DNA of 64,000 bases from Candidatus Omnitrophota bacterium (GCA_028715345.1 JAQUSB010000003.1:2004-66003); one strand, 5' to 3'. Positions 2,410 through 40,002 are shown, counted from the stretch's first letter. The notes: generated by a model from the letters alone, not told the origin. Program-made: numbers and translations.

Positions 2410-2435
2410 GTAGGTCACCCTTAAGGGTGACCTAC
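2410..2435. repeat. 26-nt perfect palindrome, copy 1: gtaggtcaccc-ttaa-gggtgacctac
   Basis: Perfect inverted repeat overlapping the stop codon of the ferredoxin gene. Lies 28 nt upstream of the NuoH-like start. No U-tract follows. Confidence 0.6.
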
Positions 2436-2953
2436 TGCTGAGGGATCCGCTTCTTTACCGGGATCGTTTCTCCGATCCCTCTTTCCCATTTGAAATTCGT
2501 CTTGACGAGCAGATTTTCCGATATCTTGAAAATATTTTCTTCTTTATTCTCGTCGAACTCGCCGAAACGTATCCCGCCGTGACTGCACATCTCCAAACAT
2601 ACCGGCGATTGCCCCTCCTGCAACCTGCCTAAGCAATAGTCGCAGCGCGCTATAACGAAAGGTATCGTCTCCGGATAAATGACCCCGAACGGGCAGGCGC
2701 GCGAACAGCTCTTGCACGAAGTGCACCGCATCGAGTAGCGCTTCAACGCGTTATACGGCTGGAATTCGAGCGCTTTCCACGGGCACGACGCGACGCACGG
2801 TGAGTCCTCGCACCGCCTGCAGACAAGCGCGAAGTGCGCGAATTCAAGAAGGCTCAGCACGCCGTTATTCGACGGGTGCTGGATGTAGCTGCAGACCACG
2901 CCGCATTCCCGGCAATTCAGGCATATGTCCAGATCTATGAGCAGTCTCTTCAT
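2432..2953 (-). CDS. Poly-ferredoxin, 4Fe-4S clusters (HycB/HyfA-like electron transfer subunit)
   Basis: 173 aa with four Cys clusters: CLNCRECGVVC, CRRCEDSPCVASCP, CTSCKSCSRACP, CDYC...C...C. Confidence 0.6.
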   Translation of the reverse strand: MKRLLIDLDICLNCRECGVVCSYIQHPSNNGVLSLLEFAHFALVCRRCEDSPCVASCPWKALEFQPYNALKRYSMRCTSCKSCSRACPFGVIYPETIPFVIARCDYCLGRLQEGQSPVCLEMCSHGGIRFGEFDENKEENIFKISENLLVKTNFKWERGIGETIPVKKRIPQQ

Positions 2954-3772
2954 TTAATCCCAGATCTTCTGCAGATCCTTTATCTTGTCGTAAGTGAACA
3001 CAGGCCCGTCCTTACACGCGTAGTAAGGCCCTATTCTGCAATGGCCGCATTTACCGATACCGCACGACATATTCTTTTCCATCGACAAATATATGGCGCT
3101 CTCCTTTATACCGAGGTCGAGAAGCTTGAACGTGACGAACTTCATCATTATCGGAGGGCCGCATACTATCGCTGCGGTATTATTTATGTCGACGAGGCCG
3201 GGCTTCAATACGGTGGTAACCAGGCCTACGTTCCCTTTCCATGTATCGTCGCCCACATCCACGCTCACTTCTATGTCTATGTGCGGTGCTTTCGCTTTCC
3301 AGGAATCTATCTCATTCTTAAAAACTATATCTTTGGGCGAACGCGCGCCGTATTTCAACACTATCTTTTTGTAATCGTTGACCTCGTTAAATAGCGCGTA
3401 TAGAAGCGCCCGCAACGGAGCCAGGCCTACGCCGCCGCCCACTATGAATAATTCTTTCCCCTTAAAATCTTTCAGCGGATAACCGAGGCCGTAAGGACCG
3501 CGGACACCGACGATGTCCCCTGCCTTCGCCTGGTGCAGGAGGCCGGTGACCCTGCCTGTGCGCATTATGGTAAAATCGAGAGTGTCCTTGGAATTGTGGT
3601 TCGATGAAGGCGTGAACGGCGCCTCGCCTATGCCCGGCATCGTCACGTCCATGAATTGGCCGGCGCGGAACCCTATCTCGGTCCGCGGCTTGAGCGTAAA
3701 AGTCTTTATGTTATGCGTCTCTTCTACGACTTTCAATATCTCGGCTTCTGTATATGCGTACGGATTAGTCAT
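2954..3772 (-). CDS. FAD/NAD(P)-binding oxidoreductase with C-terminal 2Fe-2S, sulfhydrogenase gamma (HydG) / AsrB-like
   Basis: 272 aa. Ferredoxin-NADP reductase-like fold motifs: RAGQFMDV and GGGVGLAPL. C-terminal CGIGKCGHC...C cluster, as in PyrK/HydG/AsrB. Confidence 0.65.
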   Translation of the reverse strand: MTNPYAYTEAEILKVVEETHNIKTFTLKPRTEIGFRAGQFMDVTMPGIGEAPFTPSSNHNSKDTLDFTIMRTGRVTGLLHQAKAGDIVGVRGPYGLGYPLKDFKGKELFIVGGGVGLAPLRALLYALFNEVNDYKKIVLKYGARSPKDIVFKNEIDSWKAKAPHIDIEVSVDVGDDTWKGNVGLVTTVLKPGLVDINNTAAIVCGPPIMMKFVTFKLLDLGIKESAIYLSMEKNMSCGIGKCGHCRIGPYYACKDGPVFTYDKIKDLQKIWD

Positions 3773-4814
3773 TCGGCGGTTTATTCCATTTTCCCAAAAC
3801 GAGCCCTTTTAAGACTTCGCGCAGGTCTATATCGCCCGGGCAAGCTTCGATGCACCTGCCGCAGCCCGTGCACGCGAAATAATTCAATACTTCCGGGAAG
3901 AAATCGAACTTCTTCTCGAACCTGTTGCGCAGGCGCTCATATAACTGCTTCCTGGGGTTCGCGCCCCCGGCGACCCTGGCAAATGTATTGTAGAGGCAGG
4001 CATCCCACATCCTGAAACGCTTGTTCCCTGCCGCCGTCTTCTCGTCGAATAAGAGGAAGCAGTGGCACGTCGGGCAGACGAGGTTGCACGCCCCGCATTC
4101 GACGCACGTGGAGGCGAAGTCCTGCCATAACTGCACCAGGTTATAATTTTTCTTCACGGCGCCTTTTATCTGGGCGGTATTCTGTGTTCCCCTTTTATCG
4201 ATAAAATACTGCACTTCCCTGGTAACTTTTTCGCGGTTGGCCTGCCTTTTATTGAGGTCTGTAGCCGTATGCGGTTTGAAGAACATCCTGAAATTATTTA
4301 CAAGCCTCTCGCCCGCGGCGCTACCTACTTCGACGATGAAATGGTCATTTATACCGGACAGGTTTATATCGAAATATTTTTGCGGGTAAGGCGCGCCTTC
4401 CATCGCCAGGCAGAAGCATGTCTCTTTGGCGTAAGTGCAGTCTGTACCTATAATGAGGGTGTTTTTCCTGTTCTCGGCGTAAAAGGGATCCTCGGCGTCG
4501 CCTTTTAAAAATACGAAATCCTGCAGGATCAGGCTCGACAGGTCGCAGCCCTTCACCCCGGCTATGATAACCGGCTTCTTTTCTTTGGGTTTGCCGTCAA
4601 GGATCTTTTCTCTGGCGGGATTTATAAAGCTCTTTAAGGGCTGCGTCTGTCTGATGCCGCCCAACTCTATATCGCTTTCTTTTCCTGGATCGAACTCGCC
4701 GAAATGCAGCCTTTCCCCTTTAACGTAGGGGACGAAAATCCTATGCTCGGAAGACAACCTCGTGAATAGATCGTACAGATCTTTTTTGGTGATTTTGTAA
4801 ATTTTTTTCTCCAT
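3765..4814 (-). CDS. Iron-sulfur subunit, sulfhydrogenase beta (HydB) / AsrA-like
   Basis: 349 aa. Motifs CVECGACNLVCPTCHC and CTGCGRCIEACP. The HydB/AsrA family is always paired with the gamma/B subunit. Confidence 0.6.
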   Translation of the reverse strand: MEKKIYKITKKDLYDLFTRLSSEHRIFVPYVKGERLHFGEFDPGKESDIELGGIRQTQPLKSFINPAREKILDGKPKEKKPVIIAGVKGCDLSSLILQDFVFLKGDAEDPFYAENRKNTLIIGTDCTYAKETCFCLAMEGAPYPQKYFDINLSGINDHFIVEVGSAAGERLVNNFRMFFKPHTATDLNKRQANREKVTREVQYFIDKRGTQNTAQIKGAVKKNYNLVQLWQDFASTCVECGACNLVCPTCHCFLLFDEKTAAGNKRFRMWDACLYNTFARVAGGANPRKQLYERLRNRFEKKFDFFPEVLNYFACTGCGRCIEACPGDIDLREVLKGLVLGKWNKPPND

Positions 4815-4888
4815 AACTTCTCATAGTGTAAGTATTTATTTTAGAACGCGCCGCAGGTTAAGTCAATTCAATTTTAGATACATTACCC

Positions 4889-5296
4889 CTAAAATTTTAC
4901 GACCATGGCCCTGGGCGGGCATGCCCTTACGCACAGCTCGCAAGCGATGCATTTGTCGGAATCGAACAGCACCTTCATCGTCTTTTTGTCTATATAGAGC
5001 GCTTCTGTGGGGCATACGGATATGCAGGCGCCGCACTGCGTGCACCTCGATTCGTCCCTGGTCACATCCTTGCTCAAAGGCTGTATCTTCACGCCGAGGC
5101 CTGTAAGGTATTTTACGCCAGCGACGTAATTTTCCTTTTTGCCTTTCAGCTCCAACACCATGAGCCCTTCTTCCTTGGGCGTTATCTTGGCCTGTAGAAT
5201 GTTAAAAACGAGGTCAAAATCTTTGACAAGCTTATAAACTATCGGCTCATCGACCAATTTGTGCGGAAAAGTAAGTACTATTCTTTTGGATACCAT
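4889..5296 (-). CDS. NIL-domain / 4Fe-4S ferredoxin fusion protein
   Basis: 135 aa. N-terminal NIL-like domain, then CTQCGACISVCP and CIACELCVRACP. Confidence 0.55.
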   Translation of the reverse strand: MVSKRIVLTFPHKLVDEPIVYKLVKDFDLVFNILQAKITPKEEGLMVLELKGKKENYVAGVKYLTGLGVKIQPLSKDVTRDESRCTQCGACISVCPTEALYIDKKTMKVLFDSDKCIACELCVRACPPRAMVVKF

Positions 5297-5327
5297 GTCA
5301 AAACCTCCCTCATGTTAAAACCTCGGC

Positions 5328-6047: not shown

Positions 6048-6053
6048 ATTATT

Positions 6054-7058
6054 TTAGCATATCCTGGGCAATTGTTCACCCGATAGCATATCCACAAGCC
6101 TGCGCCCGCCTGCCGCCGTATTTAGGCAAACTTTGCCCTTCTCTTCTTTAGTGATTTCCCCTATGATGTTCGCGCGCTTTCCGTTCTTATCTTTGCGGAT
6201 GATCTTCAATATTTTGTCCGCCTCTTTTGCCGCCGCGATAAAAATAACGCGCCCTTCGCAGGCAAGATAGAGCGGATCAAAACCCAAAAGCTCGCACGCC
6301 TGCCCGACGCCGTCACTGACAGGGACGGCTTTCTCGTCCAGAGCGATCCCGAACTTATGCGATGCCGTGATCTCGTTAAGCGTCGTGGCAACGCCGCCCC
6401 TCGTCGGATCTCTCATGAATTTCACGCTCGTCCCGGACGCTTTCAGGACTTTTTCGATAAGCCTGTTCAAGGCAGCCGAGTCGCTCTTTACTTTTGTTTT
6501 GAATTCAATGCCTTCGCGCCCAGACAGGACGCTTATAGCGTGTTCGCCTATGGGCCCGCTTACGATAACTTTATCTCCTGCCTTTATCCTATCGGGCGAA
6601 AGTTTATCGTAATATATCTCGCCCAGCCCGCTCGTATTTATGAAAATCTTGTCACAGCTTCCCCTCTCGACCACTTTTGTATCGCCGGTCACTATGCTTA
6701 CGCCTGCTTTTTCGGCTGCCGCGGCGGCGGACCTTACTATCTTTTCCAATATGCTTTTATCGAGCCCTTCTTCTATTATGAGGCCGAACGAAAGGTGTGC
6801 CGGGCGGGCGCCGCATACCGAAAGATCGTTCACCGTCCCGTGCACAGCGAGGCTGCCTATGTCCCCTCCCGGGAAAAATATCGGGTTAACAACGTATGAG
6901 TCCGTCGTGAACGCTATCCGCGTTTTGCCTATCGTCAATATCGCGGAATCTTTTTTCTGGCGCAGTATATTATTATCGAATTCCTTCATGATTACAGAAT
7001 CGATGAGCTTATGCATCAATGTCCCGCCGCTGCCGTGGGAAAGCGTTATCTTGTCCAT
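6054..7058 (-). CDS. hypE: Hydrogenase maturation carbamoyl dehydratase HypE
   Basis: AIR-synthase-like fold (MDKITLSHGSGG...). Ends with the conserved C-terminal PRIC motif. Start moved to the internal ATG at 7056-7058, because the longer ORF would overlap hypD by 68 nt. Confidence 0.8.
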   Translation of the reverse strand: MDKITLSHGSGGTLMHKLIDSVIMKEFDNNILRQKKDSAILTIGKTRIAFTTDSYVVNPIFFPGGDIGSLAVHGTVNDLSVCGARPAHLSFGLIIEEGLDKSILEKIVRSAAAAAEKAGVSIVTGDTKVVERGSCDKIFINTSGLGEIYYDKLSPDRIKAGDKVIVSGPIGEHAISVLSGREGIEFKTKVKSDSAALNRLIEKVLKASGTSVKFMRDPTRGGVATTLNEITASHKFGIALDEKAVPVSDGVGQACELLGFDPLYLACEGRVIFIAAAKEADKILKIIRKDKNGKRANIIGEITKEEKGKVCLNTAAGGRRLVDMLSGEQLPRIC

Positions 7059-7062
7059 TTTA

Positions 7063-8145
7063 TTATATCCTGCCCCTGTATTTATAATACGCCGCGCACG
7101 CCCCTTCGCTCGACACCATACAGGCGCCAACGGGATGCTCCGGGGTACAAAGTTTCGCGAACAATTTGCACTCGGGCGGCGTCTTCACTCCCTTTATTAC
7201 TTCGCCGCATATGCACGCCTTGTTTTCCTTCGGCGCGGCTATCTTCGGTTTAAATCTCGCCTCGGCATCGAATGCGCCGAATTCTTTTCGTATTTTTAAG
7301 CCGCTCTTTTTTATGCATCCTATACCGCGCCACGAAGAATCGTCAGCCTCAAAAACTTTATCGATGCTGTTTTTCGCTAATCTGTTCCCCGACTTCGTTA
7401 TTATCCTCGTATATTGTATCTCGATTTTCGGAGTCTTTTGTTCCAACAGCATCAATATCGCCTGCAATATATCGAGCGGCTCGATCCCGGCTACAACGCA
7501 GCGTTTCCCTCTTTTAGTCAAAAATCGATACGGCGCCGTCCCTATTACCGCGCTGACGTGGCCCGGTAGTAAAAATCCGTCTATATTAAGCTTCGGCTCT
7601 TCGGTCAGGGCCTTCAATGCCTCAGGCATCGTTTTATGGCCGCAGAGGACGGAGTAATTTTTCAATTTTTCTTTTTTTGCCGCGATAATAGACTGCGCGA
7701 CCGTCGGCGCCGTCGTTTCAAAACCTATCCCTAAAAATATCACCTCTTTATCCGGGTTTTTCTTTGCCAATTCAAGCGCGTCCATACTCGAATAGACCAT
7801 TTTTACTGCCGCGCCGCGGGCTTTTTCCTTATCGAGGCTCGAATGCGAGCCCGGCACCCTGAACATGTCGCCGAATGTCGCGATAATAGAATCTTTCCTT
7901 CGGGCAAGCGCTATCGCTTTATCGATGAACTCATTCGGCGTAACGCATACCGGGCATCCCGGGCCGGATATGAGGTTGATGTTCCCGGGCAATATGCCGC
8001 GCAAGCCGAAACGGAATATGCTCATCGTGTGCGTACCGCACACTTCCATGAAATTGTACCCACGGCGCGGATCCGCCTTCGCGCGTATCCGGCCGGCGAC
8101 TTTGTCTATGAGCCGCCTATTTCTGAATTCGTCTATGTATTTCAT
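7063..8145 (-). CDS. hypD: Hydrogenase maturation factor HypD
   Basis: 360 aa. Motifs CGTH, GPGCPVC and CPVC characteristic of HypD. Confidence 0.85.
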   Translation of the reverse strand: MKYIDEFRNRRLIDKVAGRIRAKADPRRGYNFMEVCGTHTMSIFRFGLRGILPGNINLISGPGCPVCVTPNEFIDKAIALARRKDSIIATFGDMFRVPGSHSSLDKEKARGAAVKMVYSSMDALELAKKNPDKEVIFLGIGFETTAPTVAQSIIAAKKEKLKNYSVLCGHKTMPEALKALTEEPKLNIDGFLLPGHVSAVIGTAPYRFLTKRGKRCVVAGIEPLDILQAILMLLEQKTPKIEIQYTRIITKSGNRLAKNSIDKVFEADDSSWRGIGCIKKSGLKIRKEFGAFDAEARFKPKIAAPKENKACICGEVIKGVKTPPECKLFAKLCTPEHPVGACMVSSEGACAAYYKYRGRI

Positions 8146-8148
8146 TTT

Positions 8149-8355
8149 TTACAGGTCTTTTAACGCGCGGAGAGTCTTACGCGCTTCGCTTTCTTTGAGT
8201 TTCTCGATCGCGAATCCCGCGTGCATGAGGATGTAGTCACCCGGCCTCGCCGTCTTCATCAGCGAGAAGTTCGCTTTTTTGCGCAAGCCGCCGGATTCGA
8301 CGACCCCATCGTCACCGTCTATCTTTATGACCTTCATCGGTATCCCTAAACACAT
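8149..8355 (-). CDS. hypC: Hydrogenase maturation factor HypC/HupF
   Basis: 68 aa. N-terminal MCLGIP motif. Confidence 0.8.
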   Translation of the reverse strand: MCLGIPMKVIKIDGDDGVVESGGLRKKANFSLMKTARPGDYILMHAGFAIEKLKESEARKTLRALKDL

Positions 8356-9470: not shown

Positions 9471-9910
9471 GGTAATATTATAACAAATCACCGTCCCGCG
9501 GAGGGGAAAATTTTTCGCTGCCCCGTAAAAGAATTCCCTCGGGATTGTGCCTCGCGTGGACGCGCAATTTTCAACCATGTGAAAATTGCGCTCGGTAAAA
9601 TTTCTCGTACGCTGCCTCGAAATTTTAACGCCCCGCTCGGCACGAATCCCTGCGGAAATTCTTTTCACCGGAGATCGAAAAACTTTTTTTACTAGTGTAG
9701 AGAAAATTTTCACTTACACGGGATGGCAGAACTTTTGGGTGGTGCCGGAGCGAATCTTGAAATTTTCGATACCTTATGCCGATGCAGGCTTTACCATCGA
9801 AAATTTCACGACAGTGAGCGAGGATGGCTTCTTCCTTCGCGAACGACGAGCGGAGGCACCACCCGAAAGTAAATGCCTGACTGAGGTGAAAATTTTCTCG
9901 GAGCGAACCC
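9471..9910. promoter_or_regulatory. Intergenic region with about 9 copies of the self-complementary motif GAAAATTTTC (variants GAAATTTTC, GAAAATTTC)
   Basis: Motif copies near 9509, 9572, 9581, 9597, 9620, 9703, 9760, 9801 and 9890. Contains a 12-bp-stem hairpin 9562-9591 (gcgcaattttca-accatg-tgaaaattgcgc). No credible ORF. Lies upstream of the hypF start and downstream of the pdaD stop. Confidence 0.4.
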
Positions 9911-10480
9911 CTAGAAGAGAAACACTGCCGCGGCGACTACCGTGGAATAATTGCCGTCCGGGCCGACTACGGCGGATTGGGTGGTATTTGACGTGCGGAT
10001 GATCTTGTCGCTCAGCTGGTATATGGCCTTATTCTCGTCCCACGACTTATCCTCGTCGAATTCGAGGCCGAGGGTCGACGCCAACATTTCTACCGCCAGG
10101 TCTTCGGCGAGGTCCCCGGCCACTTTTTCGCTCTGGCCGAAGGCGTGGTGCTCGCTCAAGTACCCGTAGGCCTGCGGATCCGCCGGGACGGCACAGCCGA
10201 TCGACGCCGCGATAAGGCGGTGCGGCTCGTTGCCGTTGCACCTGGACATTACTGCATACGTTATCATCCCGGGATAAAGTTCTTTTAAGCCTTCGTTCCT
10301 GGAAACGACTTTGCACTCGGGCGGTAGTATGCTCGAGACATGGACGAGGTTGCACTTCTCTATACCCGCGTCGCGCAGAGCAAGCTCGAAGCTCCTCAAT
10401 TCCGCCTTGTGGGTGCCGACACCTTTAGTGAAGAACATCTTTTTGGGAACAAGCAGGTTTTTCCTGGGAACTAATAGCAT
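9911..10480 (-). CDS. pdaD: Pyruvoyl-dependent arginine decarboxylase
   Basis: FTKGVGTHK...SFELAL..AGI...[11 protein letters not shown] matches the PdaD family, including the serinolysis site region. Paired with the agmatinase gene. Confidence 0.7.
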
Positions 10481-10486
10481 CGCATA

Positions 10487-10596
10487 CCTTTCAAGTTTAT
10501 TCAGCCTAGGGTTAGCTAAGTGCCGATATCTCCGATATCGGCCAAGTTTATTCAGCCATAGGGTTAGCTAAGTGCCGAGGTCTTTAGACCTCGGCC
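10487..10596. repeat. Two tandem copies of a 52-bp unit, each ending in a short hairpin
   Basis: Unit: agtttattcagcc(t/at)agggttagctaagtgccga plus hairpin. Hairpin 1 is ccgatatc-tc-cgatatcgg. Hairpin 2 is ccgaggtc-ttta-gacctcgg, followed by a T-rich tail on the plus strand. Confidence 0.5.
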
Positions 10597-11480
10597 TATT
10601 TCTTTCCGTAGAATATATAGCCCAACAGCCTGTAAATAAGTTTCGCAGCGAAAAAGTCCGACGCTACCTGCCCTTTTATCGGGCATAGCTCCACCACGTC
10701 GAAACCCACCACCTTCTTGTCTTTAGCGACGTCCCTGAGAAGGTCGAGCACTTCATACCATCCCAACCCGCCCGGTTCGGGCGTCCCGACCGCCGGCATA
10801 AGCGCGGGATCGAAAACGTCAAGGTCTATAGATATGTACACATTTTCCGCAAGAGAGTTCGTGACCTTGTCTTTCCACATCGGCGTATCGAGTATATCGT
10901 AAACATCTATGGTCTTGACCTTGGCGCCCGGTCCCTGCGAGGAGAGAAAATCCTTCTCTTCCTTCGATATGCTCCTCATCCCCACCTGCACTAGCGGGCA
11001 GATCTCGCTGATCCGCCGCGCCACACAGCCGTGATTGAGTTTCGAACCGAAATATTCATTCCTGAGGTCGTTGTGCGCATCGAGATGCAGGACCGAAATA
11101 TCGGGGTATGTCTCTTTGAAAGCCTTCACCGCGCCTACGGAAACGGAGTGTTCGCCTCCGAGCATAACGGGGAACTTCCCTGCCTTAAGGAGCTCCAGGG
11201 TCGACGAATAGACTTTCGCTACCATCTCCTCCGGACTGAGCTTTTCGACTTCGAGAGGCTCCGCTGTATGGATGCCTATCTTGAACGTTTCCTGATTTAT
11301 TTCGTCGTCGTACAGCTCCAGATACCTGGAAGCGTCTATGATAGCGGCCGGGCCCGAAGCGGTGCCGTGGATATAGGTCGTCGTCTTATCATAAGGGGCC
11401 TGCATTATAGCGACCTTGGCCTTTTTAAAACTGGAATATTCGTCCGGGAGAGCTATGAAATTTTTATTTGTCTCGTCCAT
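10596..11480 (-). CDS. speB: Agmatinase (arginase/ureohydrolase family)
   Basis: 294 aa with arginase-fold Mn-binding motifs: GGEHS, DAHNDL, SIDLDVFDPA. Confidence 0.75.
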   Translation of the reverse strand: MDETNKNFIALPDEYSSFKKAKVAIMQAPYDKTTTYIHGTASGPAAIIDASRYLELYDDEINQETFKIGIHTAEPLEVEKLSPEEMVAKVYSSTLELLKAGKFPVMLGGEHSVSVGAVKAFKETYPDISVLHLDAHNDLRNEYFGSKLNHGCVARRISEICPLVQVGMRSISKEEKDFLSSQGPGAKVKTIDVYDILDTPMWKDKVTNSLAENVYISIDLDVFDPALMPAVGTPEPGGLGWYEVLDLLRDVAKDKKVVGFDVVELCPIKGQVASDFFAAKLIYRLLGYIFYGKK

Positions 11481-11481
11481 T

Positions 11482-12513
11482 TTAACCCTGCATCAGTTCC
11501 GACACGCGCCGGGTGGTTTCAAAAACTTTTTGCGCCGATTTTTCATCAAGGGTGCCTACTCCGCAGGATGGTGTAATCAAAGACGACACTACTCCTTTTT
11601 CAATTCCCTTGGTATGTAAAATCTGCATCCAGGCTTTTAACGCTTGCGTAATAATTTCCGCCGAATTTTTTTCTACGGCGTTCGAACTGGGGACGATGCC
11701 CCACGCCACAGCGCTGCCCCGCTCGAAAAATCCTTTTAATTCCGCCGCATACAACAAAAACTCTTTTGTAAAATTATAGGCGTCAAAATTTATTATGTCA
11801 ATACCTCTTTGCAGAAGGAACGACCAATCCGTATTGCCGCAGCAGTGCACACCGCACAGAGCGCCTTCCTCTTTAACGGCGCCTGCAACTTCTTCCAGAA
11901 TACCCGAAGCCAGCGCCTGGTCCATCATGACATACCCGGAGCCGAAGGATATCAGGTACGGCTCGTCGAGAAAAATTATTACATTGGGCGATAATTTCTT
12001 AAGCTGCCTTATCTGCCATCTGGCCTTCATGGCGAGAACTTTGGTCAGGACTTCTACCAGGTCTTTGTTATAAAATATGGATTCCTTATTCTGGTTCGTA
12101 AGCGTCATGGCATAGCTTATGGGGCCCGTTATATGCCCTTTGACGAATTTGGTTTCTTTAGGCAGGAACGCCTTCCTCCTTAAAAATTCATAAAAGCCCG
12201 CGGCATATTTTTCCGATATCCCGAAAAAATCGACATCCCCGTCGAGATATTTCCCGTACACCTTTTCGATATCGCCCATTATATCGGCCGTATCGACATG
12301 CACGGTTTTTTTGATCTCGTCCACTACGATGCCGGGTATATTCTCGGAATACTGGACGTACATATTTTCCAGATATGACAGGCGCGAAAGCTGTGGCCAG
12401 AACGGTATGGACGGGAAATTATCGAATATTACGTCGCAGGCCGCTTTCGGGTCTCTGAAAGGGACAGAGCCTATCCCTGTTGCCTCAAAATTGAATTTCA
12501 AGCCTTCTCCCAT
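11482..12513 (-). CDS. MetE/UroD-superfamily methyltransferase (cobalamin-independent methionine synthase C-terminal-domain-like)
   Basis: 343 aa, TIM-barrel-like. Possible Zn ligands at GVHCCGN and SCGVG. Confidence 0.4.
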   Translation of the reverse strand: MGEGLKFNFEATGIGSVPFRDPKAACDVIFDNFPSIPFWPQLSRLSYLENMYVQYSENIPGIVVDEIKKTVHVDTADIMGDIEKVYGKYLDGDVDFFGISEKYAAGFYEFLRRKAFLPKETKFVKGHITGPISYAMTLTNQNKESIFYNKDLVEVLTKVLAMKARWQIRQLKKLSPNVIIFLDEPYLISFGSGYVMMDQALASGILEEVAGAVKEEGALCGVHCCGNTDWSFLLQRGIDIINFDAYNFTKEFLLYAAELKGFFERGSAVAWGIVPSSNAVEKNSAEIITQALKAWMQILHTKGIEKGVVSSLITPSCGVGTLDEKSAQKVFETTRRVSELMQG

Positions 12514-13460
12514 TGGCTAAGCCGCTTGATCCTCTTAAGCATGTTGGGGTGGGTGCTCAGAAGTTCCATCAGTTTGTCGCCGAAACCGAGCTTTACGGTT
12601 TTATTCTGCAGGGCCATCAGCTCGCTGTCGGATATCGTGCCGGATCTGTCGAGATCCAGGTCCTTCAGGCTCTTCAATTCGTAAAGGGCACGGGACGGAT
12701 CGTTCGCGAAGAACGCCTTCATCCCTTCGACATCCTTGATCGCCTCTTTCGGCATCCTCGCCGACCCGTACACCAGTTTATACAAAGCCGACGCGAGCTG
12801 CGCCGGTTTATTACCGAGCTCGACCGAACCTTTATCGGCGAAATATTCGCGTATCCTCGACGCGTAAAGGACGAGCAGGTTCGTGAGGAAATAGAACAGG
12901 AACGCAATAAGCCCGACGACCATCGTGTTCGACTGGCCGCGGTCTCTCCTGTCCCCGAAGAACAGGAATTGCCACGCTATCCTGTAAAGTATTATCGGTA
13001 TCACCGAGAGTAGAGTTATAGTGAGAACGTCCCTGTTCTTTATATGGCTCATCTCGTGGCCCAGGACGGCCCTGAGCTCGTTCCTGTCGAGGAGGCCCAT
13101 GATGCCCTCGGTAACGCATATCCTCCCGTCCCTTATCGAACGTCCGAACGCGAAAGCGTTCGGGACGGAGATGCGCGCGATGCCGATGCGCGGAGCGGGT
13201 ATATTGGCGGCCATCGCGAGCGATTTGATCATCGACTGCAATTCCTGGTTCTCGCCCGCCTTCAGGTATCTCACCTGCATCGACCACTCGATAAGTTTCG
13301 GTCCCAACATATACTGGACCAGCATTATGACGAGCGACAATATAAGATAAAAATAGAAATTACCGATGCCGAGCGAATAGCTCACCATCGAGATTATCGC
13401 GTATATTATCGCGAAAAGGACCGCTGTAAGCAGCCACATCCTTAACCTCAAACCCCACAT
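12498..13460 (-). CDS. htpX: M48 family membrane zinc metalloprotease HtpX
   Basis: N-terminal transmembrane helices. HEMSH zinc motif (HExxH) in typical HtpX context. Confidence 0.75.
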   Translation of the reverse strand: MWGLRLRMWLLTAVLFAIIYAIISMVSYSLGIGNFYFYLILSLVIMLVQYMLGPKLIEWSMQVRYLKAGENQELQSMIKSLAMAANIPAPRIGIARISVPNAFAFGRSIRDGRICVTEGIMGLLDRNELRAVLGHEMSHIKNRDVLTITLLSVIPIILYRIAWQFLFFGDRRDRGQSNTMVVGLIAFLFYFLTNLLVLYASRIREYFADKGSVELGNKPAQLASALYKLVYGSARMPKEAIKDVEGMKAFFANDPSRALYELKSLKDLDLDRSGTISDSELMALQNKTVKLGFGDKLMELLSTHPNMLKRIKRLSQWEKA

Positions 13461-13483
13461 ATAACTACCCTCCGGATTTTACT

Positions 13484-14740
13484 TTACGCCTGTATGAATA
13501 CTTCCCGCGCCGCCAGCGCCGCCGCGCCCATAACTATAGCATCCTCGCCCAGGAAGCTGGGCACGATCTTCACTATACTGGCAGGCTCTTCGAACGCGAA
13601 CCTTTTGACCGAACTCTTTATAGGCTCGAAGAGAAGGTCTCCGGCGGCCTCCATCCCTCCCCCTATTATGACCATAGAAGGGTTGAGAAGGTCTATCATA
13701 TACGCTATCCTCACGCCGAGGTCCCTGCCGGCTTTGTCTAAAAGCTCTATAGCGAGCTTGTCGCCTTTTTTAGCGGCGCCTATGACTGCCTCTTTGGTTA
13801 TGGCATCGGCCTTACCTTTCGCCGTATTGAGTATTTCCGTTGCCTGGCCTTTCTGAACGGCCTTCTTCGCCTCATATACGACGCCGAGGTCCACTCCCCA
13901 CGGCCGCAGGTAAGCGAATTCTTTTATATACCCTTTATCGTCCGACTGCAGCCCGTTATAAGCTATCTGCGTCTCCCCCGCGCAGCCGCTCGACCCCGTA
14001 TAGACATCGCCGTTTATCACCATCCCGCACCCGACATCGGAGTACACGTAGATAATGTTATCGACGTCCGCGGAAGGATTTAGCGTCCTCTCGCCGAACG
14101 CCGCGCAGGAGGCGTCGTTGCCTATATATACGGATATATTGAATTTTTGCTCTATGGCTTTGGTGAATTTCAGGAAACTGACCCTCGTCCTGCCCCTGGC
14201 CGGATCCGTATCGCGGATAGTGCCGGACGGGTAATCTATTATGCCCGATATGCCTATGCCTATATTTTTTATGTCCGGCGCGTTTATTTTGCTCTTCGCG
14301 ATGACATCTTCTATCGCCTTCGTTACCTCCGGTATCAGTTCCTCCATATTCACGGGAGGGCGCGGCACCTTAACTTTGGCTATCACATTGACCTTGAGGT
14401 CCGCGACTATGGCCAATATATTCGTCGGGCTTATATCCACCCCGACGACATACCCGCTCTTCGCGTTCAATTCCAGAAGCTCCGGGCGCCTGCCGCCGGA
14501 AGAGGTGTCGAGCCCGACCTCGAGTATTATCCTTTTATTTATATAATAATCCGCGTAATTCGTAACGGTAACGATATTCGACCCGAGGACCCTCGATATC
14601 TCCGCCCTGGATATGGGCCCTTTCCTGCGTATCAGTTCCAGTATGGCAAGGTTGCGCCTCTCCCTGTCCTGCGTAATATGAAAGCTGAAGACGTTATCGC
14701 TATTCATTACCACCCCATATGTTTGGTTTTGGTAACGCAT
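13484..14740 (-). CDS. ROK family transcriptional regulator / sugar kinase (NagC/XylR-like)
   Basis: N-terminal winged-helix region (LAILELIRRKGPISRAEISRVLG), then a ROK glucokinase-like domain (GVDISPT, GIGISG, GNDASCAAFGE, CGCG). Confidence 0.65.
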   Translation of the reverse strand: MRYQNQTYGVVMNSDNVFSFHITQDRERRNLAILELIRRKGPISRAEISRVLGSNIVTVTNYADYYINKRIILEVGLDTSSGGRRPELLELNAKSGYVVGVDISPTNILAIVADLKVNVIAKVKVPRPPVNMEELIPEVTKAIEDVIAKSKINAPDIKNIGIGISGIIDYPSGTIRDTDPARGRTRVSFLKFTKAIEQKFNISVYIGNDASCAAFGERTLNPSADVDNIIYVYSDVGCGMVINGDVYTGSSGCAGETQIAYNGLQSDDKGYIKEFAYLRPWGVDLGVVYEAKKAVQKGQATEILNTAKGKADAITKEAVIGAAKKGDKLAIELLDKAGRDLGVRIAYMIDLLNPSMVIIGGGMEAAGDLLFEPIKSSVKRFAFEEPASIVKIVPSFLGEDAIVMGAAALAAREVFIQA

Positions 14741-16349: not shown

Positions 16350-16364
16350 AACGCGGGCCTTCTA

Positions 16365-22500: not shown

Positions 22501-25500
22501 CGGATGCCTTTACTGGTATTTGCCACCCTGAAAGAATCACCGCGTTTTTCTATCTTAGACGCGTCAAATTTGCCTTTCGGGAAATTTCCCACGACGGGCC
22601 AGAACCTCTTATCGCTCTCGGGCTTTTCCGCCTTATCTACGAGGAATAATATCCTGCCGCAGGGATCCATAGGGTCATACGCGCGCCTTGTAACGTCGCA
22701 TTCCTTATGAATACCTTCGCTGAATATTTCTCCGTTGTCCCTGATGATGACCCTGTATTCCCTGTTCGCGAGCTCATGGCTTTCCACGGTGCGCGATCTT
22801 TTCCTGTGATGGAGCGCGCGCAGGATAACAGAGAAGACGGTGCATGCTATAACGGCCGCGATAATGACCGCCGTTTTTTCGAATACAGGCATCGACTGGA
22901 ACGTCGCGATCAGGCCCGGTTTATTCATAGCGGCGTTCTGCATCGCTATGGAAGTGTTCCAGACCTTGTCCCATTCGTTGCCGCGGGGAATATAAAAAGG
23001 TATCAGGAGCGGCGCCCATGTAGCGAACCTTTTCACCGCGTCCGGTATATAACGCTGGGCGGCGGCAGGGCCGATGAAACGCGCTATGCGTTCGTCGAGC
23101 CTGTCGAGGCCGAGGAAGCTCAAATTAACGAGAGTGGCGACGCGCAGCCCCATATGGTCCATCCATATGAGCACCCTGAAGAAATCGCACGCCATTATCC
23201 AGATGAAGACCTGCAGGCTCCACGCGCGGAACGCTTCGGGCGACATCGTGATGTTATTGAATATCGCGAATCCCGTGCGGATAGCGCCGTCCTGGTTATA
23301 CCACGTGGGATCGGGCATCATGCGAAGGCCGGTAAATATGATCGGCGACATCCAGAGGCCCCATCTCAATACATATATCATGTGCTCGACAAGCTGGGCA
23401 AAGCCCGCCTTCGAAAAGAAAAATTTTATCGGGGTCTTGTCTTTTTCGAAGTATGCCTGCATGAATACTTTATTTATAGCGAACAGCCACGCGGCTATCG
23501 ACCAGTTAATGACACCTGCCAGGGATTCCGTGTATATAAGCTTTACGCCCCCGGTGTAAGTGCCGAGGTCGATACGGCCCCACTTGTTAACGAGCGGGTA
23601 TGTGACGTAATTGACGGCTTCGAAGCCGGAGCTTACATATAATTTGAACTTCTCGACGATCACAGGCACCTGCAGCGCGTCCATATAGAAGGCCGCGGCG
23701 CTGCCGATAAAAGCTCCGAGTACGGAATCGACGAAATACAGCTTCCAGGTATGGACGCGGCCCGTACCTTTGAAAGCGTAAAAAGCATCTCTTAAAAAAC
23801 TGACGCCGCCTGACGACAGGATGCCTATAATGAGGCCGAACACTATCCTGTTCGGCATCGCAAGAGTTATCATATTCTTACTCATCGCGTAGCTGAACCC
23901 GAACCCTACTATAGCGCCCCTGGCGTATAACGAAAGATCCCGGTAACTATAACGCGTCCTCTCAAAGAACGGCAGGCTGCCGTCGAACGATTCTATGATC
24001 GTCTTGAGGAACGGGAATATCAGGGCGCCTGCGATGATGCCTATCAGCATAGGGACCGAGCCCATCACTTTCTGGGATACGGGTGAAGCGATAATCATAT
24101 TCAGGACAAAGAGTATACCCATCACTATAGCGCTGAAGGCCATACCCTTCTTCATACCGCCGTTAACGTGTTTTAAGAGAGTTTCCCCGGACGGAGCGAT
24201 AAGCTTGCCGCTATCTAAAAGCATACCGGTGATAAGGTAAACTTCGGCCCAAAGGCCGCCGAAGGAAAGCATGCTCGTAATGATGCAGGCGACTGCTTTT
24301 AACGCCGCAGGCAGTGAAGCAACGGCCGCGGTGGAGCCGAAATCGGCGATCAGCGGGGCCACAACAACGCCCATCGATACGAGAAAGACCGACAGGTGCG
24401 CTCTAAAAGTCTTCAAAGGCCTCTCTCTTATGGAGATGCCTATCCCGTTAGCAACGGCTTCATTGAATCCGAATATGATGATAAGCCTGCCGACATTTTC
24501 GGTAATTATAGACCAGTATTTCCATATGCCCAATGTAAGGGCATTGCCCAAAGTATGAAGGAGGCCGGGGCTTTCCACTAAAAGAAGCCAGTTGAATAGA
24601 TACGGCACTCCGGCTATCAATATAGAAGATATCGGCCTAAGCTGTTTGCCCGAAGAGGCAAGCGACCTGGCGTTCGCGGCGTGGTAAATTATAAAGGTAA
24701 GGGCGGCAACGGTGTTGCTGAAAGTCAAAAGCTGGACCCATGAAGAAGGCGGCTGTAAAAGCTCCATCCTGCTCGATGCGGCGGCCAAAAATCCCGAAAC
24801 TAGGACATTACGCAATGTCTCGGCGCCTGTGAGGCTTTTCCCGGTAAGCCCGTATTTGAGTATCTGCGCTATACCTGCGCCCAGCAGCGCCACTATGACG
24901 AAATTCACCCCAAGCCCGGCGTCGAGGGCGCCTTTTATCCCCATAGCGTAAACGCTTATGCCGGTTCCGAGTATCAATACCGCCGACACGCCGTAAAGAA
25001 GATCTCGTTTAATGCCCGACACAGGCGAACCATCTTCTTTCTTACGCGCAGATATCCTGCCGAATAAAGCCATTATCAACGCGGCAAGAAAACCGACTAA
25101 TAAGACTATAGAAACTTTTATCAGGGCAAGGTACTTCTGCAAAAATGACATTTTGAAAAATTCAAGATCGAAATATAATATGCCTTCGAGTTTTTTATTC
25201 GGGTCGAGCGGGCTTACCACAAATACGACTTCATTGAGCGGCCCTATCCTGTCCCAATCCACCGCTTCATTTATATAACTCCAGTCTTTGGTAAGGCGCA
25301 TCGGTATGGCCTGCATAGTACCCTTGCCTTTTATCTCGAGCTTAACGGATACCTGTTTCAGCTGTTCGGGAGTAGACGCTTTTACGCTGGCCCTGACGGC
25401 ATCGACCATTTTCGGGCTGAATCTGGAAGGAAAGCTTTTTGTCCACACTCCGGCAATAGCGCCGCCGTATATCGTGTAATCGAACTTCAGGATGTTCTTA

Positions 25501-25709
25501 TCTATCAATTCTTCGCGTTCGCCCGTCACGTCGCCCATGGCAGGGCCCATATTGAACATGCCTTTTTCGCCCGCTTCGAGGATGCTGAAACCCGTAGGAT
25601 CGTTAACAACGGAAGGGCGTTTCTCGGCTGCGCAGGCGGAAGATGTAAATATTCCCGCCGCTATGATAAGGACAGACAGGGCCTGCAATATTCTTCTGCG
25701 TTCGATCAT
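19578..25709 (-). CDS. Giant membrane protein: N-terminal periplasmic domain, about 20 transmembrane helices, and C-terminal GH94 phosphorylase/glucanase-like catalytic domain
   Basis: 2043 aa. GH94 hallmarks in the C-terminal third: YQTSGAYGFRDQLQD (DNA about 20856-20900) and TGDWNDG (about 20441-20465). Two beta-sandwich GH94 N-domain-like segments. Residues about 200-1000 are continuously hydrophobic. No GT-A/GT84 DxD domain recognised. Confidence 0.6.
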   Translation of the reverse strand: MIERRRILQALSVLIIAAGIFTSSACAAEKRPSVVNDPTGFSILEAGEKGMFNMGPAMGDVTGEREELIDKNILKFDYTIYGGAIAGVWTKSFPSRFSPKMVDAVRASVKASTPEQLKQVSVKLEIKGKGTMQAIPMRLTKDWSYINEAVDWDRIGPLNEVVFVVSPLDPNKKLEGILYFDLEFFKMSFLQKYLALIKVSIVLLVGFLAALIMALFGRISARKKEDGSPVSGIKRDLLYGVSAVLILGTGISVYAMGIKGALDAGLGVNFVIVALLGAGIAQILKYGLTGKSLTGAETLRNVLVSGFLAAASSRMELLQPPSSWVQLLTFSNTVAALTFIIYHAANARSLASSGKQLRPISSILIAGVPYLFNWLLLVESPGLLHTLGNALTLGIWKYWSIITENVGRLIIIFGFNEAVANGIGISIRERPLKTFRAHLSVFLVSMGVVVAPLIADFGSTAAVASLPAALKAVACIITSMLSFGGLWAEVYLITGMLLDSGKLIAPSGETLLKHVNGGMKKGMAFSAIVMGILFVLNMIIASPVSQKVMGSVPMLIGIIAGALIFPFLKTIIESFDGSLPFFERTRYSYRDLSLYARGAIVGFGFSYAMSKNMITLAMPNRIVFGLIIGILSSGGVSFLRDAFYAFKGTGRVHTWKLYFVDSVLGAFIGSAAAFYMDALQVPVIVEKFKLYVSSGFEAVNYVTYPLVNKWGRIDLGTYTGGVKLIYTESLAGVINWSIAAWLFAINKVFMQAYFEKDKTPIKFFFSKAGFAQLVEHMIYVLRWGLWMSPIIFTGLRMMPDPTWYNQDGAIRTGFAIFNNITMSPEAFRAWSLQVFIWIMACDFFRVLIWMDHMGLRVATLVNLSFLGLDRLDERIARFIGPAAAQRYIPDAVKRFATWAPLLIPFYIPRGNEWDKVWNTSIAMQNAAMNKPGLIATFQSMPVFEKTAVIIAAVIACTVFSVILRALHHRKRSRTVESHELANREYRVIIRDNGEIFSEGIHKECDVTRRAYDPMDPCGRILFLVDKAEKPESDKRFWPVVGNFPKGKFDASKIEKRGDSFRVANTSKGIRTNIKISLPDKESNAEIWEVTLENTTDKARELKVVPYLEWVLVGGIHDRFHTQYARLYPEMEYVSSSNAVLAYQKSAKTMGILASDAAPEGFLTSRVDFIGRVRSIWSPRILETLNFLTARDTNPYPTFDPIGSLAVNAQIAPKASVKVRFMIGFTKNKKTALELIAQHLKPQSAAPKAKAAAAAKKASVLIGHGEIPPGTPQPYSTFSQDGKKLVVHTPFTPRPIDHAVSNAVHSIMVTNRGLHTSSNGNSQQNRLTPDWPDIVTKEIPTEAFYLYDPDGNDWYSPTYLPLRDKSARCESEFSVDGTAIFRMARGSVSTELTVFVPPDDPAGLYLLTVKNNSDRDKKLRIVPYFQMVLGFQPERAGPLMMKYQRSTGSLFFNNPRNIFRSGWAFVSTSMKSPAVETSRGKFFGCGGDVVRPYMVKEGSSDRKCFGDISQVAAFLEEVTIPAHGEHTMSVVMGQCDDRKEADKIIRKYKNVDEVRKSLAQTKKWWLGLMDTLKVETNKPEFDRYQDWLKYQALAERIWARRGFYQTSGAYGFRDQLQDTVNLIWVDPALARKQIILHASQQFIEGDVFHWFFTLTDGRTAFSCRSHASDNPVWLVWGVVEYIRTTGDTSILDEMASYVISQFPFAKLPKNKQGWGHLYHRTTRSDTIYKHCMKSVDLILKDRTGKNGLPLIQTGDWNDGLDEIGSEGKGESVWLGFFLYYILKEMVNIIEMKEGKEKKAYYVKRMEDLKTSLEKTWRGDRYLRAFHDDGTEIGIKGSGVWEIDALTASWAVKAGINFERGLTVFNTALDVLERENAILLGWPALREDTKPYLGRSSKYPEGVRENGMYCHGVQWLVRAARLIAEEFDRRGDRAKADEYRKTSYRLWLKVSPIPRVKEVELYGGQPNKQSADILTTFDQGRMIWHGYTGAAGWMLRQAMEGVLGASLAKNKLVLPDDIDKPRGELKISRIQRDITKSPIKVLRPG

Positions 25710-27568: not shown

Positions 27569-27580
27569 CTGTACGCTCCT

Positions 27581-29860: not shown

Positions 29861-29890
29861 GATATTTATGGAGGCTGTGTTTAATTTGGG

Positions 29891-29916
29891 GTAGGGCACC
29901 CTTAAGGGTGCCCTAC
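29891..29916. repeat. 26-nt perfect palindrome, copy 2: gtagggcaccc-ttaa-gggtgccctac
   Basis: Same core CACCCTTAAGGGTG, with a compensatory T/A to G/C change in the outer stem. Lies between the 29942 gene stop and the 27581 gene start. Confidence 0.6.
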
Positions 29917-29941
29917 CTTGCTCGTGAAAGCTTACTTCTTA

Positions 29942-30559
29942 TTACTTGTTCTTCGTGAACCTTAGATCGTCGAGGTAGATCACGCCCTTCTTATTGGACG
30001 CTATCCTGTCTTCGAATACGATGACGAATTCGGTAAGGTTCGAGTAATCCGTAATTCCTTTAAAGTCTTTAAGAGGAATTACCACATCCTGCCACTGGTC
30101 CGTTATGTTTGTGACATAATAACGGCCGACCTGCTTCGATGCATTCTTCAATTCGACTTTGAATACGGTCGTGTAGCCGATCTTCGCATCGCCCTTTACC
30201 CTGAACGCGACATTGTCATACTTGGAAGCATCCAGGTTCTGGAGGAACATCCAGAATCCGTTATAAGCCGGGTTCTTGGATTCGACGCTGTACTCCAACT
30301 TCATACCGAAACCTTTTGTGCCGTACCTGTTCACGCTGTCAAAAGCTTCCGTGCAGCCCTGCGAAAAATCTGTTGGATCTTTGGACCACGCTCCGAAGTC
30401 GCCGCCTATATTATTCGGCTTCTCCCCGGAATCGAAATCGGCCACCAAAAGCTCACTCCCCGAAGCAGCGGGAGCTTTTTCAGCAGCGAAAGCTGCGGGC
30501 ACTGCAAGCGCGCAAACAAAAGCCGCCAGCATCACCATATATACAAGCTTTTTTACCAT
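29942..30559 (-). CDS. Secreted single-domain CBM-like protein (paralog family)
   Basis: Start at ATG 30557-30559, preceded by AGAAAGGGGGAGGTT (strong Shine-Dalgarno). Signal peptide, then a domain aligning with the N-terminus of 17407 (ADFD...G..G.W...LEY.V......NGFW..L...DASKYD...F.VKGDAK). Confidence 0.5.
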   Translation of the reverse strand: MVKKLVYMVMLAAFVCALAVPAAFAAEKAPAASGSELLVADFDSGEKPNNIGGDFGAWSKDPTDFSQGCTEAFDSVNRYGTKGFGMKLEYSVESKNPAYNGFWMFLQNLDASKYDNVAFRVKGDAKIGYTTVFKVELKNASKQVGRYYVTNITDQWQDVVIPLKDFKGITDYSNLTEFVIVFEDRIASNKKGVIYLDDLRFTKNK

Positions 30560-30633
30560 AACCTCCCCCTTTCTTTTGGTTAAAGTATACACAGGGGGGC
30601 ATTAAATACCGGTTAAAGGAATATTAAAAGATT

Positions 30634-32109: not shown

Positions 32110-32110
32110 T

Positions 32111-32782: not shown

Positions 32783-32789
32783 AACGCTT

Positions 32790-36478: not shown

Positions 36479-36519
36479 TCCTTTCGCTTAAGGATTGCGG
36501 GTATTTAGGCAAGAAATCG

Positions 36520-37881: not shown

Positions 37882-38009
37882 AGATCAGCCTTTCATTTGG
37901 TTAGCATTTGATAGTTTTTAATAATATTAGCATATTATAATCTTTTGTCAAGCTCAAGTTGATAGCCGTATAAATCGGCGGATTTTTGTTTACCCGGATT
38001 GCGACAGCT

Positions 38010-39245: not shown

Positions 39246-39931
39246 GTCTTATATTTTAATATTACGGAATCTATGCCGGAGAGTATATCCTTTAAACGTT
39301 TGCCGTCTTCTGCAGGTATTGAACCCTTGTCGGCCAGCGCATTTATCCGCTCTTCCAGCGCCATAGAGTCGGTTTTGATCTTCTTGATGTCTTCATGCAG
39401 GCCCTCCACCATCTCTTCGAGAGCCGTCGCAGCGCTCCTCATCTCATCGCCGCGCCGTATCTTGAAATTGACTAAGAGGTCGCCGCGATGTATGGCCTCG
39501 GCGGATTTCTCTATCCTGTACATAGGCCCGGCTATCCTGTGTGATATGAATATGCCTGCGAAGAATATCAATACGGAGAGTATTATGACTTTCGGGATGA
39601 GCGATCTGTTCACGGAACGCAGAGCGTCTTTTAACGCGGCCTTATCCTGCGAGCTGAGCAGTTCGGCCTCGCGGAATATTTTTTCTAATCTGTAATCGCC
39701 CTTGCCGTATCTGACCTGTTCGTAATCGGTAATGCGGTTCACGTTCTCGAGGTTCTGCGAAACTTTAAAGTGGGAAAAGTTCTCGATGATCGAACCCCAC
39801 ATCCCCATGTAAAGCCCGAAACCCGTAACGAACATTACGACAAGAAGGGTGAGTACTGTCAGGACGGTGTATTTAAGCTGGAACCTTTTATTGACAAGGT
39901 AATTTTTTCTTTTATAGGTCGTTTCGGCCAT
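39242..39931 (-). CDS. Membrane protein with two transmembrane helices and a HAMP-like cytoplasmic helix, no output domain
   Basis: 229 aa. The second transmembrane helix is followed by HRIAGPMYRIEKSAEAIHRGDL, a HAMP-like amphipathic linker. Confidence 0.35.
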   Translation of the reverse strand: MAETTYKRKNYLVNKRFQLKYTVLTVLTLLVVMFVTGFGLYMGMWGSIIENFSHFKVSQNLENVNRITDYEQVRYGKGDYRLEKIFREAELLSSQDKAALKDALRSVNRSLIPKVIILSVLIFFAGIFISHRIAGPMYRIEKSAEAIHRGDLLVNFKIRRGDEMRSAATALEEMVEGLHEDIKKIKTDSMALEERINALADKGSIPAEDGKRLKDILSGIDSVILKYKT

Positions 39932-39976
39932 GCCGTAATTATATCATAAAAAATACCGACAGGCTAATCTAAAAAA

Positions 39977-40002
39977 GTAGCGCACCCTTAAGGGTGCGCT
40001 AC
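39977..40002. repeat. 26-nt perfect palindrome, copy 3: gtagcgcaccc-ttaa-gggtgcgctac
   Basis: Same core, with two compensatory outer-stem changes. Lies between the 40035 gene stop and the 39931 gene start. Confidence 0.6.

Follow-up and report, generated by a model that had tools for sequence, protein, structure and literature searches.

Palindromic repeats in a Candidatus Omnitrophota contig are very probably GTAG-type REPs of a REP/RAYT system

What is the nature of a 26-nucleotide (nt) palindrome that recurs three times, each time between two genes, in a 64,000-nt stretch of DNA from a Candidatus Omnitrophota bacterium (GCA_028715345.1, JAQUSB010000003.1:2004-66003; this whole stretch is hereafter called the window, and positions in it are counted from its first letter)? 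A preliminary description of the sequence proposed a repetitive extragenic palindrome (REP)-like element, a processing site for RNase III or another enzyme, or an operator for a dimeric regulator, and held that the element links hydrogenase, glycan and HAMP genes. It appears very probable that the three palindromes are GTAG-type REPs, belonging to a system of REPs and REP-associated tyrosine transposases (RAYTs) that is common in Candidatus Omnitrophota. A REP is a short repeat disseminated by such a RAYT, a domesticated HUH/tyrosine enzyme. This identification follows from the GTAG tag, the covarying stems, the position at gene 3' ends and the flanking of RAYT genes by the same repeat in relatives, all of which support the first of the candidates proposed earlier.

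The three copies read GTAGGTCACCCTTAAGGGTGACCTAC (copy 1, 2410-2435), (G)GTAGGGCACCCTTAAGGGTGCCCTAC(C) (copy 2) and GTAGCGCACCCTTAAGGGTGCGCTAC (copy 3, 39977-40002). Each contains a perfect palindrome of 26 nt, as had been claimed, and that of copy 2 extends to 28 nt (29890-29917). Indeed, they are the three longest perfect hairpins detected by a perfect-hairpin scan of the 64 kb. Their 14-nt core, CACCCTTAAGGGTG, occurs exactly three times in the window against an expectation of 0.06, and none of 100 dinucleotide-preserving shuffles reached three occurrences. Outside the core, the outer stems vary by paired changes alone (GT/AC, GG/CC and CG/CG), confirming the compensatory pattern noted earlier. 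Folded as RNA, the three hairpins reach -23 to -29 kcal/mol, with z values of -4.3 to -5.1. No Rfam family was matched when the whole window was scanned at gathering thresholds.

The repeat is not peculiar to this contig. A scan of one genome per GTDB species with the pattern AGNNCACCCTTAAGGGTGNNCT returned at least 107 stretches, and the family counts given here refer to the matches listed. Most of these lie in roughly 25-30 assemblies labelled Candidatus Omnitrophota or Omnitrophica, or in metagenome-assembled genomes (MAGs) labelled 'uncultured Planctomycetia'. Several assemblies hold many copies: in the pieces fetched there are at least 9 for the complete chromosome CP070780.1, at least 14 for JADHWH01 and at least 11 for MHFL01. 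Matches whose head is not GTAG come from Bacillaceae (Bacillus, Robertmurraya), Taibaiella and others; they look like chance or ordinary hairpins and were excluded. The 26-mer pattern had no match in a viral contig collection, indicating that the repeat is not phage-borne.

The unit can be written 5'-GTAG-NN-(5-bp stem)-TTAA-(5-bp stem)-NN-CTAC-3', and in about half of the copies NN(N)-TGTGGATAA(C/G)TT, referred to below as the tail, follows on one side. The GTAG head is present in 93 of the 116 exact-core copies as well as in all three window copies, the scan pattern having imposed only the AG of this head and left the T and G of the tag free. The two free stem positions on each side provide an unbiased test of covariation: they are Watson-Crick complementary in 111 of the 116 copies, where chance predicts 1/16, and 12 complementary dinucleotide combinations occur. 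The commonest of these, GG/CC, GT/AC and CG/CG, are the three variants of the window. Variant cores found in relatives, among them GAGGTTTAAACCTC, GACGTTTAAACGTC, CACGCTTAAGCGTG and CCCGGGCTTAAGCCCGGG, remain paired and keep the stem.

The tail lies 2-3 nt outside CTAC on 54 of the 214 flanks, that is at 50 of the 108 hairpins, four of which have it on both sides. Its conservation drops sharply beyond 12 nt (consensus TGTGGATAACTT), and on the tail-less side complementarity dwindles within about 5 nt. A one-sided tail together with fading complementarity opposite indicates that the unit is asymmetric and about 40 nt long. Direct repeats in the flanks are near the uniform expectation for k = 3-6, with an approximately two-fold excess at k = 2 (13 versus 6.75); instead, the hairpin flanks prolong the inverted repeat. 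[quoted passage not shown]

In relatives, the repeat is physically linked to transposase genes. Small open reading frames (ORFs) are bracketed on both sides by the palindromes at L003:6718-7203 (CP070780.1), L015:6301-6792 and L050:6806-7291. Family-model scans covered the L003 and L015 proteins. Both match Pfam Y1_Tnp and lie well over the cutoff of 80 bits of the NCBIfam model NF047646, 'REP-associated tyrosine transposase' (119 and 116.7 bits, respectively), whereas both remain under the cutoff of 55 bits of the IS200 model (29.9 and 19.8 bits). The L050 protein is 45% identical to that of L003 by tblastn, and this RAYT gene takes its stop codon, TAG, from the downstream REP. In the Protein Data Bank (PDB), the L003 protein matches 4ER8 alone, the E. 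coli TnpA-REP (E = 3.8e-10). The two proteins align over the HUH motif (EHIHF/EHMHC) as well as over the catalytic Tyr-x3-Asn-x3-His segment (YIHNNPLKH/YIYINPVKH), with only about one third of the positions shared in the aligned segment.

Metagenome contigs were searched with an alignment of these three RAYT proteins. Next to the six closest RAYTs (46-56% identity, L109-L114), either on one side or on both, lie perfect GTAG…TT(T)AA(A)…CTAC palindromes with covarying cores and the family tail; one of these is a 48-nt perfect palindrome with both tails. RAYTs at 33-44% identity (L116, L118 and L120) are accompanied by classical GTAG-plus-hairpin REPs without the CTAC mirror. A REP of the GTAG superfamily and its RAYT have been termed a REPtron (Nunvar et al. 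2010, PMC2817692; PMC3733652). In the REPtrons described here, the tail usually lies directly 5' of the RAYT ATG, as in CTAC-AT-TGTGGATAAC-TTT-ATG at L015. Two further loci look like what is left of decayed REPtrons: a REP and its tail precede no more than the initial 16 nt of a RAYT gene (ATGGGAAATATAAAAC…) at about 3880-3920 on the minus strand of L103, and an ORF of three codons at L015 5945-5990.

GTAG REPs are known to measure 20-40 bp, to lie between unidirectional or convergent ORFs, to flank RAYT genes and to occur in the Planctomycetes-Verrucomicrobia-Chlamydiae (PVC) phyla (PMC3733652). Twenty-four families have been catalogued over several phyla, the PVC group included (Di Nocera et al. 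2013, PMC3733652). The Omnitrophota repeat resembles this superfamily in its size, its terminal GTAG, its short loop and its sub-families distinguished by complementary stem changes. It also shares the distribution in unidirectional and convergent gaps (PMC3733652), the flanking of RAYT genes and the presence in the PVC group. In contrast to the superfamily, in which an unpaired GTAG stands at one end, the tag is here mirrored by CTAC; the 26-mer is fully palindromic and presents GTAG plus hairpin on both strands. Further departures are the invariant TTAA centre (TTTAAA in some variants) and the conserved 12-nt tail outside one foot. Moreover, whereas superfamily members have been described as ranging over one species or genus, an identical 26-mer is found here across many species-level genomes.

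How such an element might work can be proposed by analogy with E. coli TnpA-REP. This enzyme binds a single-stranded DNA hairpin and reads the 5' GTAG base-specifically, A3 and G4 specifying cleavage at C-T (Messing et al. 2012, PMC3479197). By this analogy, the Omnitrophota element would fold into a hairpin when the DNA is single-stranded, and a single-copy HUH/Y1 enzyme, the RAYT, would bind the hairpin plus the 5' GTAG. It would then cut and rejoin the single-stranded DNA at a CT dinucleotide, whereby the repeats would be spread or maintained in trans. The prerequisites resemble those of the E. coli system, with HUH and Tyr-x3-Asn motifs that align with 4ER8, a GTAG 5' of the hairpin foot and an available CT dinucleotide. 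In the CTAC foot, G4 would pair with C23 and A3 with T24, uniting the guide and the C-T in one hairpin, on both strands. RAYT cleavage is accordingly predicted between C23 and T24 of the 3' foot. However, TnpA-REP depends on a mismatch in the stem and on a GTAG that is splayed rather than paired, and removal of the bulge abolished binding (PMC3479197). Since the present stems are perfect and their GTAG is pairable, unlike the bulged stem and splayed GTAG of E. coli, the details of recognition must differ. The sequence family, its covariation, its bias in position, its physical linkage to RAYT genes in relatives and the HUH and Tyr motifs are observed; RAYT binding, cleavage and mobility, as well as all RNA-level roles, belong to the proposed properties of the repeat.

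The arrangement of the copies also differs from that of better known repeats. E. coli REPs form bacterial interspersed mosaic element (BIME) arrays with linkers bearing IHF sites, whereas here mostly singletons with a tail are found. Like REPINs (Bertels & Rainey 2011, PMC3116915), the Omnitrophota repeats are non-autonomous, RAYT-tied and lineage-persistent. A REPIN consists of two inverted REPs plus a spacer, which form one long hairpin, whereas the window copies are single hairpins. A REPIN was rejected for the window, in which each copy stands alone, more than 10 kb from the next. Pairs of REPs 36-82 nt apart do occur in some relatives, but doublets are a minority. Some features recall IS200, whose left end is a perfect palindrome just 5' of the Y1 transposase gene that can insulate as a terminator, and whose ribosome-binding region directly follows this palindrome. 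IS200 is, however, mobile as a whole element in several copies, whereas a short hairpin unit is multiplied here, and the L003 transposase scores as a RAYT rather than as an IS200 enzyme (119 versus 29.9 bits).

A number of observations weigh against identifying the palindromes as REPs. There is no RAYT gene in the 64-kb window: two plus-strand and other small ORFs gave no Y1 or RAYT match, and tblastn with the L003 protein found nothing. The link to a RAYT is therefore one of repeat homology to the REPtrons of other genomes. The copy number seen for the source genome is three per 64 kb, all of them intergenic. The tag is base-paired (GTAG/CTAC) and the stem is free of bulges, unlike in the GTAG REPs described. 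An alignment of 33 distinct 26-mers shows no variation in GTAG, CTAC or the TTAA at the centre; the seven variable pairs all change on both sides and 98% of the cells are paired, compared with 30-42% when the partner column is slid; however, these sequences were pre-selected for palindromy and the covariation table is therefore partly circular, the test on 116 copies being the cleaner one. Finally, symmetry that is perfect even at the variable spacer positions could have arisen because copying itself makes the element symmetric, and not because each pair is under selection.

The genomic position of the repeat bears on the remaining explanations. Among the 108 hairpins, 63 lie between tandem, 14 between convergent and 2 between divergent genes; 8 are nominally inside crude ORF calls and 21 at locus edges. 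The genes that precede the repeat in relatives are unrelated (hisF, accD-like, mlaD-like, TPR, Mg-chelatase), and the supposed link between hydrogenase, glycan and HAMP genes is not upheld. What emerged is essentially the generic REP that the preliminary description had named as the outcome contrary to its own proposal.

Since all copies follow gene 3' ends, the palindromes might primarily be terminators or 3'-end stabilising hairpins, selected at the RNA level, their shared sequence reflecting a lineage-specific termination or processing factor. The great stability of the stems is in keeping with this, as are the U6 tract of copy 3, which passes a terminator scan, and the T-rich flanks (about 23% versus a background of 12.6%, by a loose criterion). 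However, a real T-run follows the stem in only about 10 of the 108 hairpins, as judged by eye, and canonical terminators are therefore a minority in the family. Such a run is absent from copies 1 and 2. Neither would a terminator preserve an identical 26-mer over dozens of species or flank both ends of a transposase gene. No enrichment of G-U pairs was seen among the rare non-Watson-Crick positions of the 116 copies, which also argues against selection at the RNA level. A terminator role thus fits a REP as a secondary effect but not as the origin of the family, and as a primary explanation we regard it as improbable.

It is still less probable that the palindromes originated as sites at which RNase III, or another enzyme processing double-stranded RNA, cuts polycistronic mRNA between cistrons, although this could be a side role. 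A perfect RNA stem of 11-13 bp between co-directional genes would suit such a function, and E. coli REPs are known to affect mRNA decay (PMC3479197). At about 20 bp or more, canonical RNase III substrates are nevertheless longer than this stem, and processing leaves the GTAG tag, the DNA tail and the flanking of RAYT genes all unexplained. Finally, a dyad-symmetric operator, by which a dimeric global regulator or nucleoid protein would coordinate adjacent genes, is hardly credible: the dyad symmetry is perfect and the invariant GTAG/CTAC and TTAA blocks could be base contacts, but the sites follow stop codons, with only the two divergent hairpins placed where promoters are expected, the genes next to the repeat in relatives have unrelated functions, free variation is seen at 7 of the 11 stem pairs provided they remain complementary, pointing to a folded single strand rather than to duplex read-out, and the RAYT linkage already explains the family.

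Several observations concern the effects of REPs on the genes that they adjoin. The REP itself often provides the stop codon of the ORF upstream, as TAG within GTAG or as TAA within the CTTAAG at the centre (for example L013 2173-2198, L014 3156-3181, L050 7288-7313 and L074 2419-2444). It therefore seems that an inserted REP can take the place of a gene's 3' end. The region 9900-13500 of the window is syntenic with the Omnitrophica MAG L094 (63-86% amino acid identity over the main segments). Two REPs lie 3' of the arginine decarboxylase gene in L094, whereas the corresponding window site has none; the genomes are too diverged for this difference to prove recent REP movement, and for mobility it is, like the RAYT-start remnant of L103, indirect evidence. 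The two REPs of L094 belong to a local, REP-associated tandem duplication of 124 bp at 7590-7830 (MHFL01000055.1), which takes in a REP, its variant tail, TGGGGATAAG, and the opening codons of the gene downstream (ATGATCAGGCCC…).

The tail deserves separate consideration. The exact 9-mer TGTGGATAA stands at the fixed offset of 2-3 nt from a hairpin in 45 of its 67 occurrences. The commonest tail contains TTATCCACA, which we take to be a perfect match to the DnaA-box consensus 9-mer. A DnaA-box function nevertheless seems improbable: the tail is tied to the hairpin, its form varies by genome (TGTTCATAAC, TGGGGATAAG and TGTTAATAAC in some of them) and no clusters of the 9-mer independent of hairpins were seen. 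For the same reasons the tail is read as part of the element, its resemblance to a DnaA box being probably coincidental. A promoter or -10 element was also considered and dropped, owing to a poor fit to sigma-70 hexamers. In about 12 of 61 cases an ATG is found at +11 to +14 after the tail. These include RAYT genes and hisF, whose canonical N-terminus in relatives begins 3 nt past a tail. The same order of tail and ATG is seen at several other host genes of relatives and in the region of copy 1. That the tail lies just before the start codon of the RAYT gene suggests an origin as the 5' untranslated region (UTR) and ribosome-binding region of the transposase gene, and the spacing to the ATG is consistent with a possible ribosome-binding function.

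We now return to the window copies and their surroundings. In a crude ORF map nearly all window genes are on the minus strand, and this holds for the genes flanking all three copies, which are co-directional as had been reported. Copy 1 (2410-2435, minus strand, oriented by its minus-strand tail) is GTAGGT-CACCCTTAAGGGTG-ACCTAC, with 13-bp arms and a folding energy of -26.1 kcal/mol (z = -4.3), and the site recurs unchanged in an independent assembly (L108, run ERR7569997). According to Pfam, its neighbours are a 4Fe-4S ferredoxin ORF (2432-2953) and an NADH-dehydrogenase-like gene (1441-2382), the ATG of which lies 27 nt from the palindrome. The ferredoxin ORF terminates inside copy 1, where TAG in the GTAG arm (2432-2434) serves as its stop codon. 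The spacer AAT and the tail TGTGGATACAAT occupy 2395-2409 on the minus strand; the tail 9-mer (2398-2406) has the family-typical offset of 3 nt from CTAC and one mismatch to TGTGGATAA, and its final CAA departs from the 12-nt consensus TGTGGATAACTT. A second partial tail, GGATAACTT-ATG (2380-2391, minus strand), abuts the ATG (2382-2380) of the NADH-dehydrogenase-like gene and may have a ribosome-binding or 5' UTR role.

Copy 2 (29890-29917), G-GTAGGG-CACCCTTAAGGGTG-CCCTAC-C, was given no orientation and has neither tail nor T-tract; its folding energy is -29.0 kcal/mol (z = -5.1). It separates a glucoamylase-like gene from one encoding a CBM_11 protein (Pfam), with the stop codon of the CBM_11 gene (29942-29944) 25 nt before it and the ATG of the glucoamylase-like gene (29860) 30 nt after it. 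It is probably just a 3'-end or mRNA-stability hairpin between cistrons. Copy 3 (39977-40002, minus strand), GTAGCG-CACCCTTAAGGGTG-CGCTAC, lies between a gene for a HAMP protein (Pfam) and an ORF of 1883 amino acids (aa) at 40035-45686 that has no Pfam match; the stop codon of this ORF (40035-40037) stands 32 nt before it and an ATG (39931) 45 nt after it. On the coding strand this copy reads GTAGCG…CGCTAC-TTTTTTAG, a TTTTTT run (39971-39976, minus strand) following directly 3' of the stem. The terminator scan, which did not call copies 1 and 2, recognized it with 11 pairs, 8 of them GC, and the tail TTTTTTAGAT. Copy 3 thus probably terminates the 1883-aa gene. A degenerate tail, TGCGGATAAC (40011-40020, plus strand), has one mismatch and lies 8 nt from copy 3 rather than at the usual 2-3 nt; it is probably a decayed tail.

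Two details of the preliminary description are amended by these positions. The distance of 3-35 nt after a stop codon holds for copies 2 and 3 but not for copy 1, where the stop is inside the palindrome. Similarly, the statement that no U-tract follows, and that the palindromes are not classical terminators, stands for copies 1 and 2 and fails for copy 3. As secondary effects, the window hairpins would be transcribed in intercistronic and 3' regions, where copy 1 would end the ferredoxin gene with its TAG and place its tail region directly before the next ATG.

Other features of the window may be mentioned briefly. Three giant ORFs lie on its minus strand, at 45890-63988, 19578-25709 and 40035-45686, of 6032, 2043 and 1883 aa, respectively. 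The last, preceding copy 3, matches a gene of the Omnitrophota chromosome CP070780.1 (L070) with about 50% identity across 481 aa. The sole long plus-strand ORF of the region 6060-7060 (6357-6899) has no family match and falls between minus-strand hydrogenase-maturation genes (hypD, 7063-8145); it may be a mis-called or frameshifted minus-strand gene. At 9560-9900 on the minus strand, 3' of the arginine decarboxylase gene, there are at least six palindromic 10-mers resembling GAAAATTTTC, spaced by about 40-60 nt. The 30-nt hairpin GCGCAATTTTCACATGGTTGAAAATTGCGC at 9562-9591 is one member of this series, which could be an array of binding sites.

A few family matches occur in MAGs with other labels, namely Bacillota (Ch29), Elusimicrobia (CG06) and Syntrophomonadaceae. 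Large scaffolds of 'Bacillota bacterium Ch29' (JABVCK01; L013, L029, L036, L043, L066, L075 and L098) carry many REPs, almost all of the GTAGCC/GGCTAC sub-type; either the label of this MAG is wrong or the family is present across phyla. Contigs of 2-5 kb (L007, L008 and L019; DYKL01, DYLN01 and DYLO01) from three SulCav_AS07-7 bins, designated Acetofilamentum, Melioribacter roseus and Ignavibacterium album, also carry the Omnitrophota-type REP. This suggests that these contigs are mis-binned.

REPs and RAYTs as such are already known. What seems to be new is the Omnitrophota family, which is set apart from published GTAG REPs by their descriptions, not by comparison with the 24 published consensus sequences; in full-text literature searches we found no paper joining Omnitrophota or Omnitrophica with REP, RAYT or REPIN. 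The family is notable for its mirrored tag, its perfect stem, its tail and a 26-mer conserved across species. Indeed, the identical 26-mer is kept across many Omnitrophota species while the RAYTs have diverged to 45-50% identity. One may go further and suppose that it represents a distinct, deeply conserved and 'self-contained' class of REPs, with guide and C-T at the feet of the same hairpin, a 26-mer outlasting RAYT divergence and a tail co-opted by the host. In this form the tail may act as a portable ribosome-binding and start module or provide dispersed DnaA-binding sites. We consider this extension unlikely, though worth stating.

For the window itself, the identification of the palindromes as REPs is deflationary, since the repeat provides no functional tie between the hydrogenase, glycan and HAMP genes. 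On the practical side, GTAG-N7-TTAA-N7-CTAC, with or without TGTGGATAAC, would be a cheap marker for Omnitrophota contigs and may expose mis-binned contigs in MAGs. More generally, work on REPs and RAYTs has almost all been concerned with Proteobacteria, and a well-defined family is now placed in the Omnitrophota, a PVC-related, uncultured phylum whose cells are very small. Its repeat is conserved far past the species or genus range of known REPs, and the symmetric GTAG…CTAC layout leads to a simple, testable prediction of the site at which its RAYT would cut.

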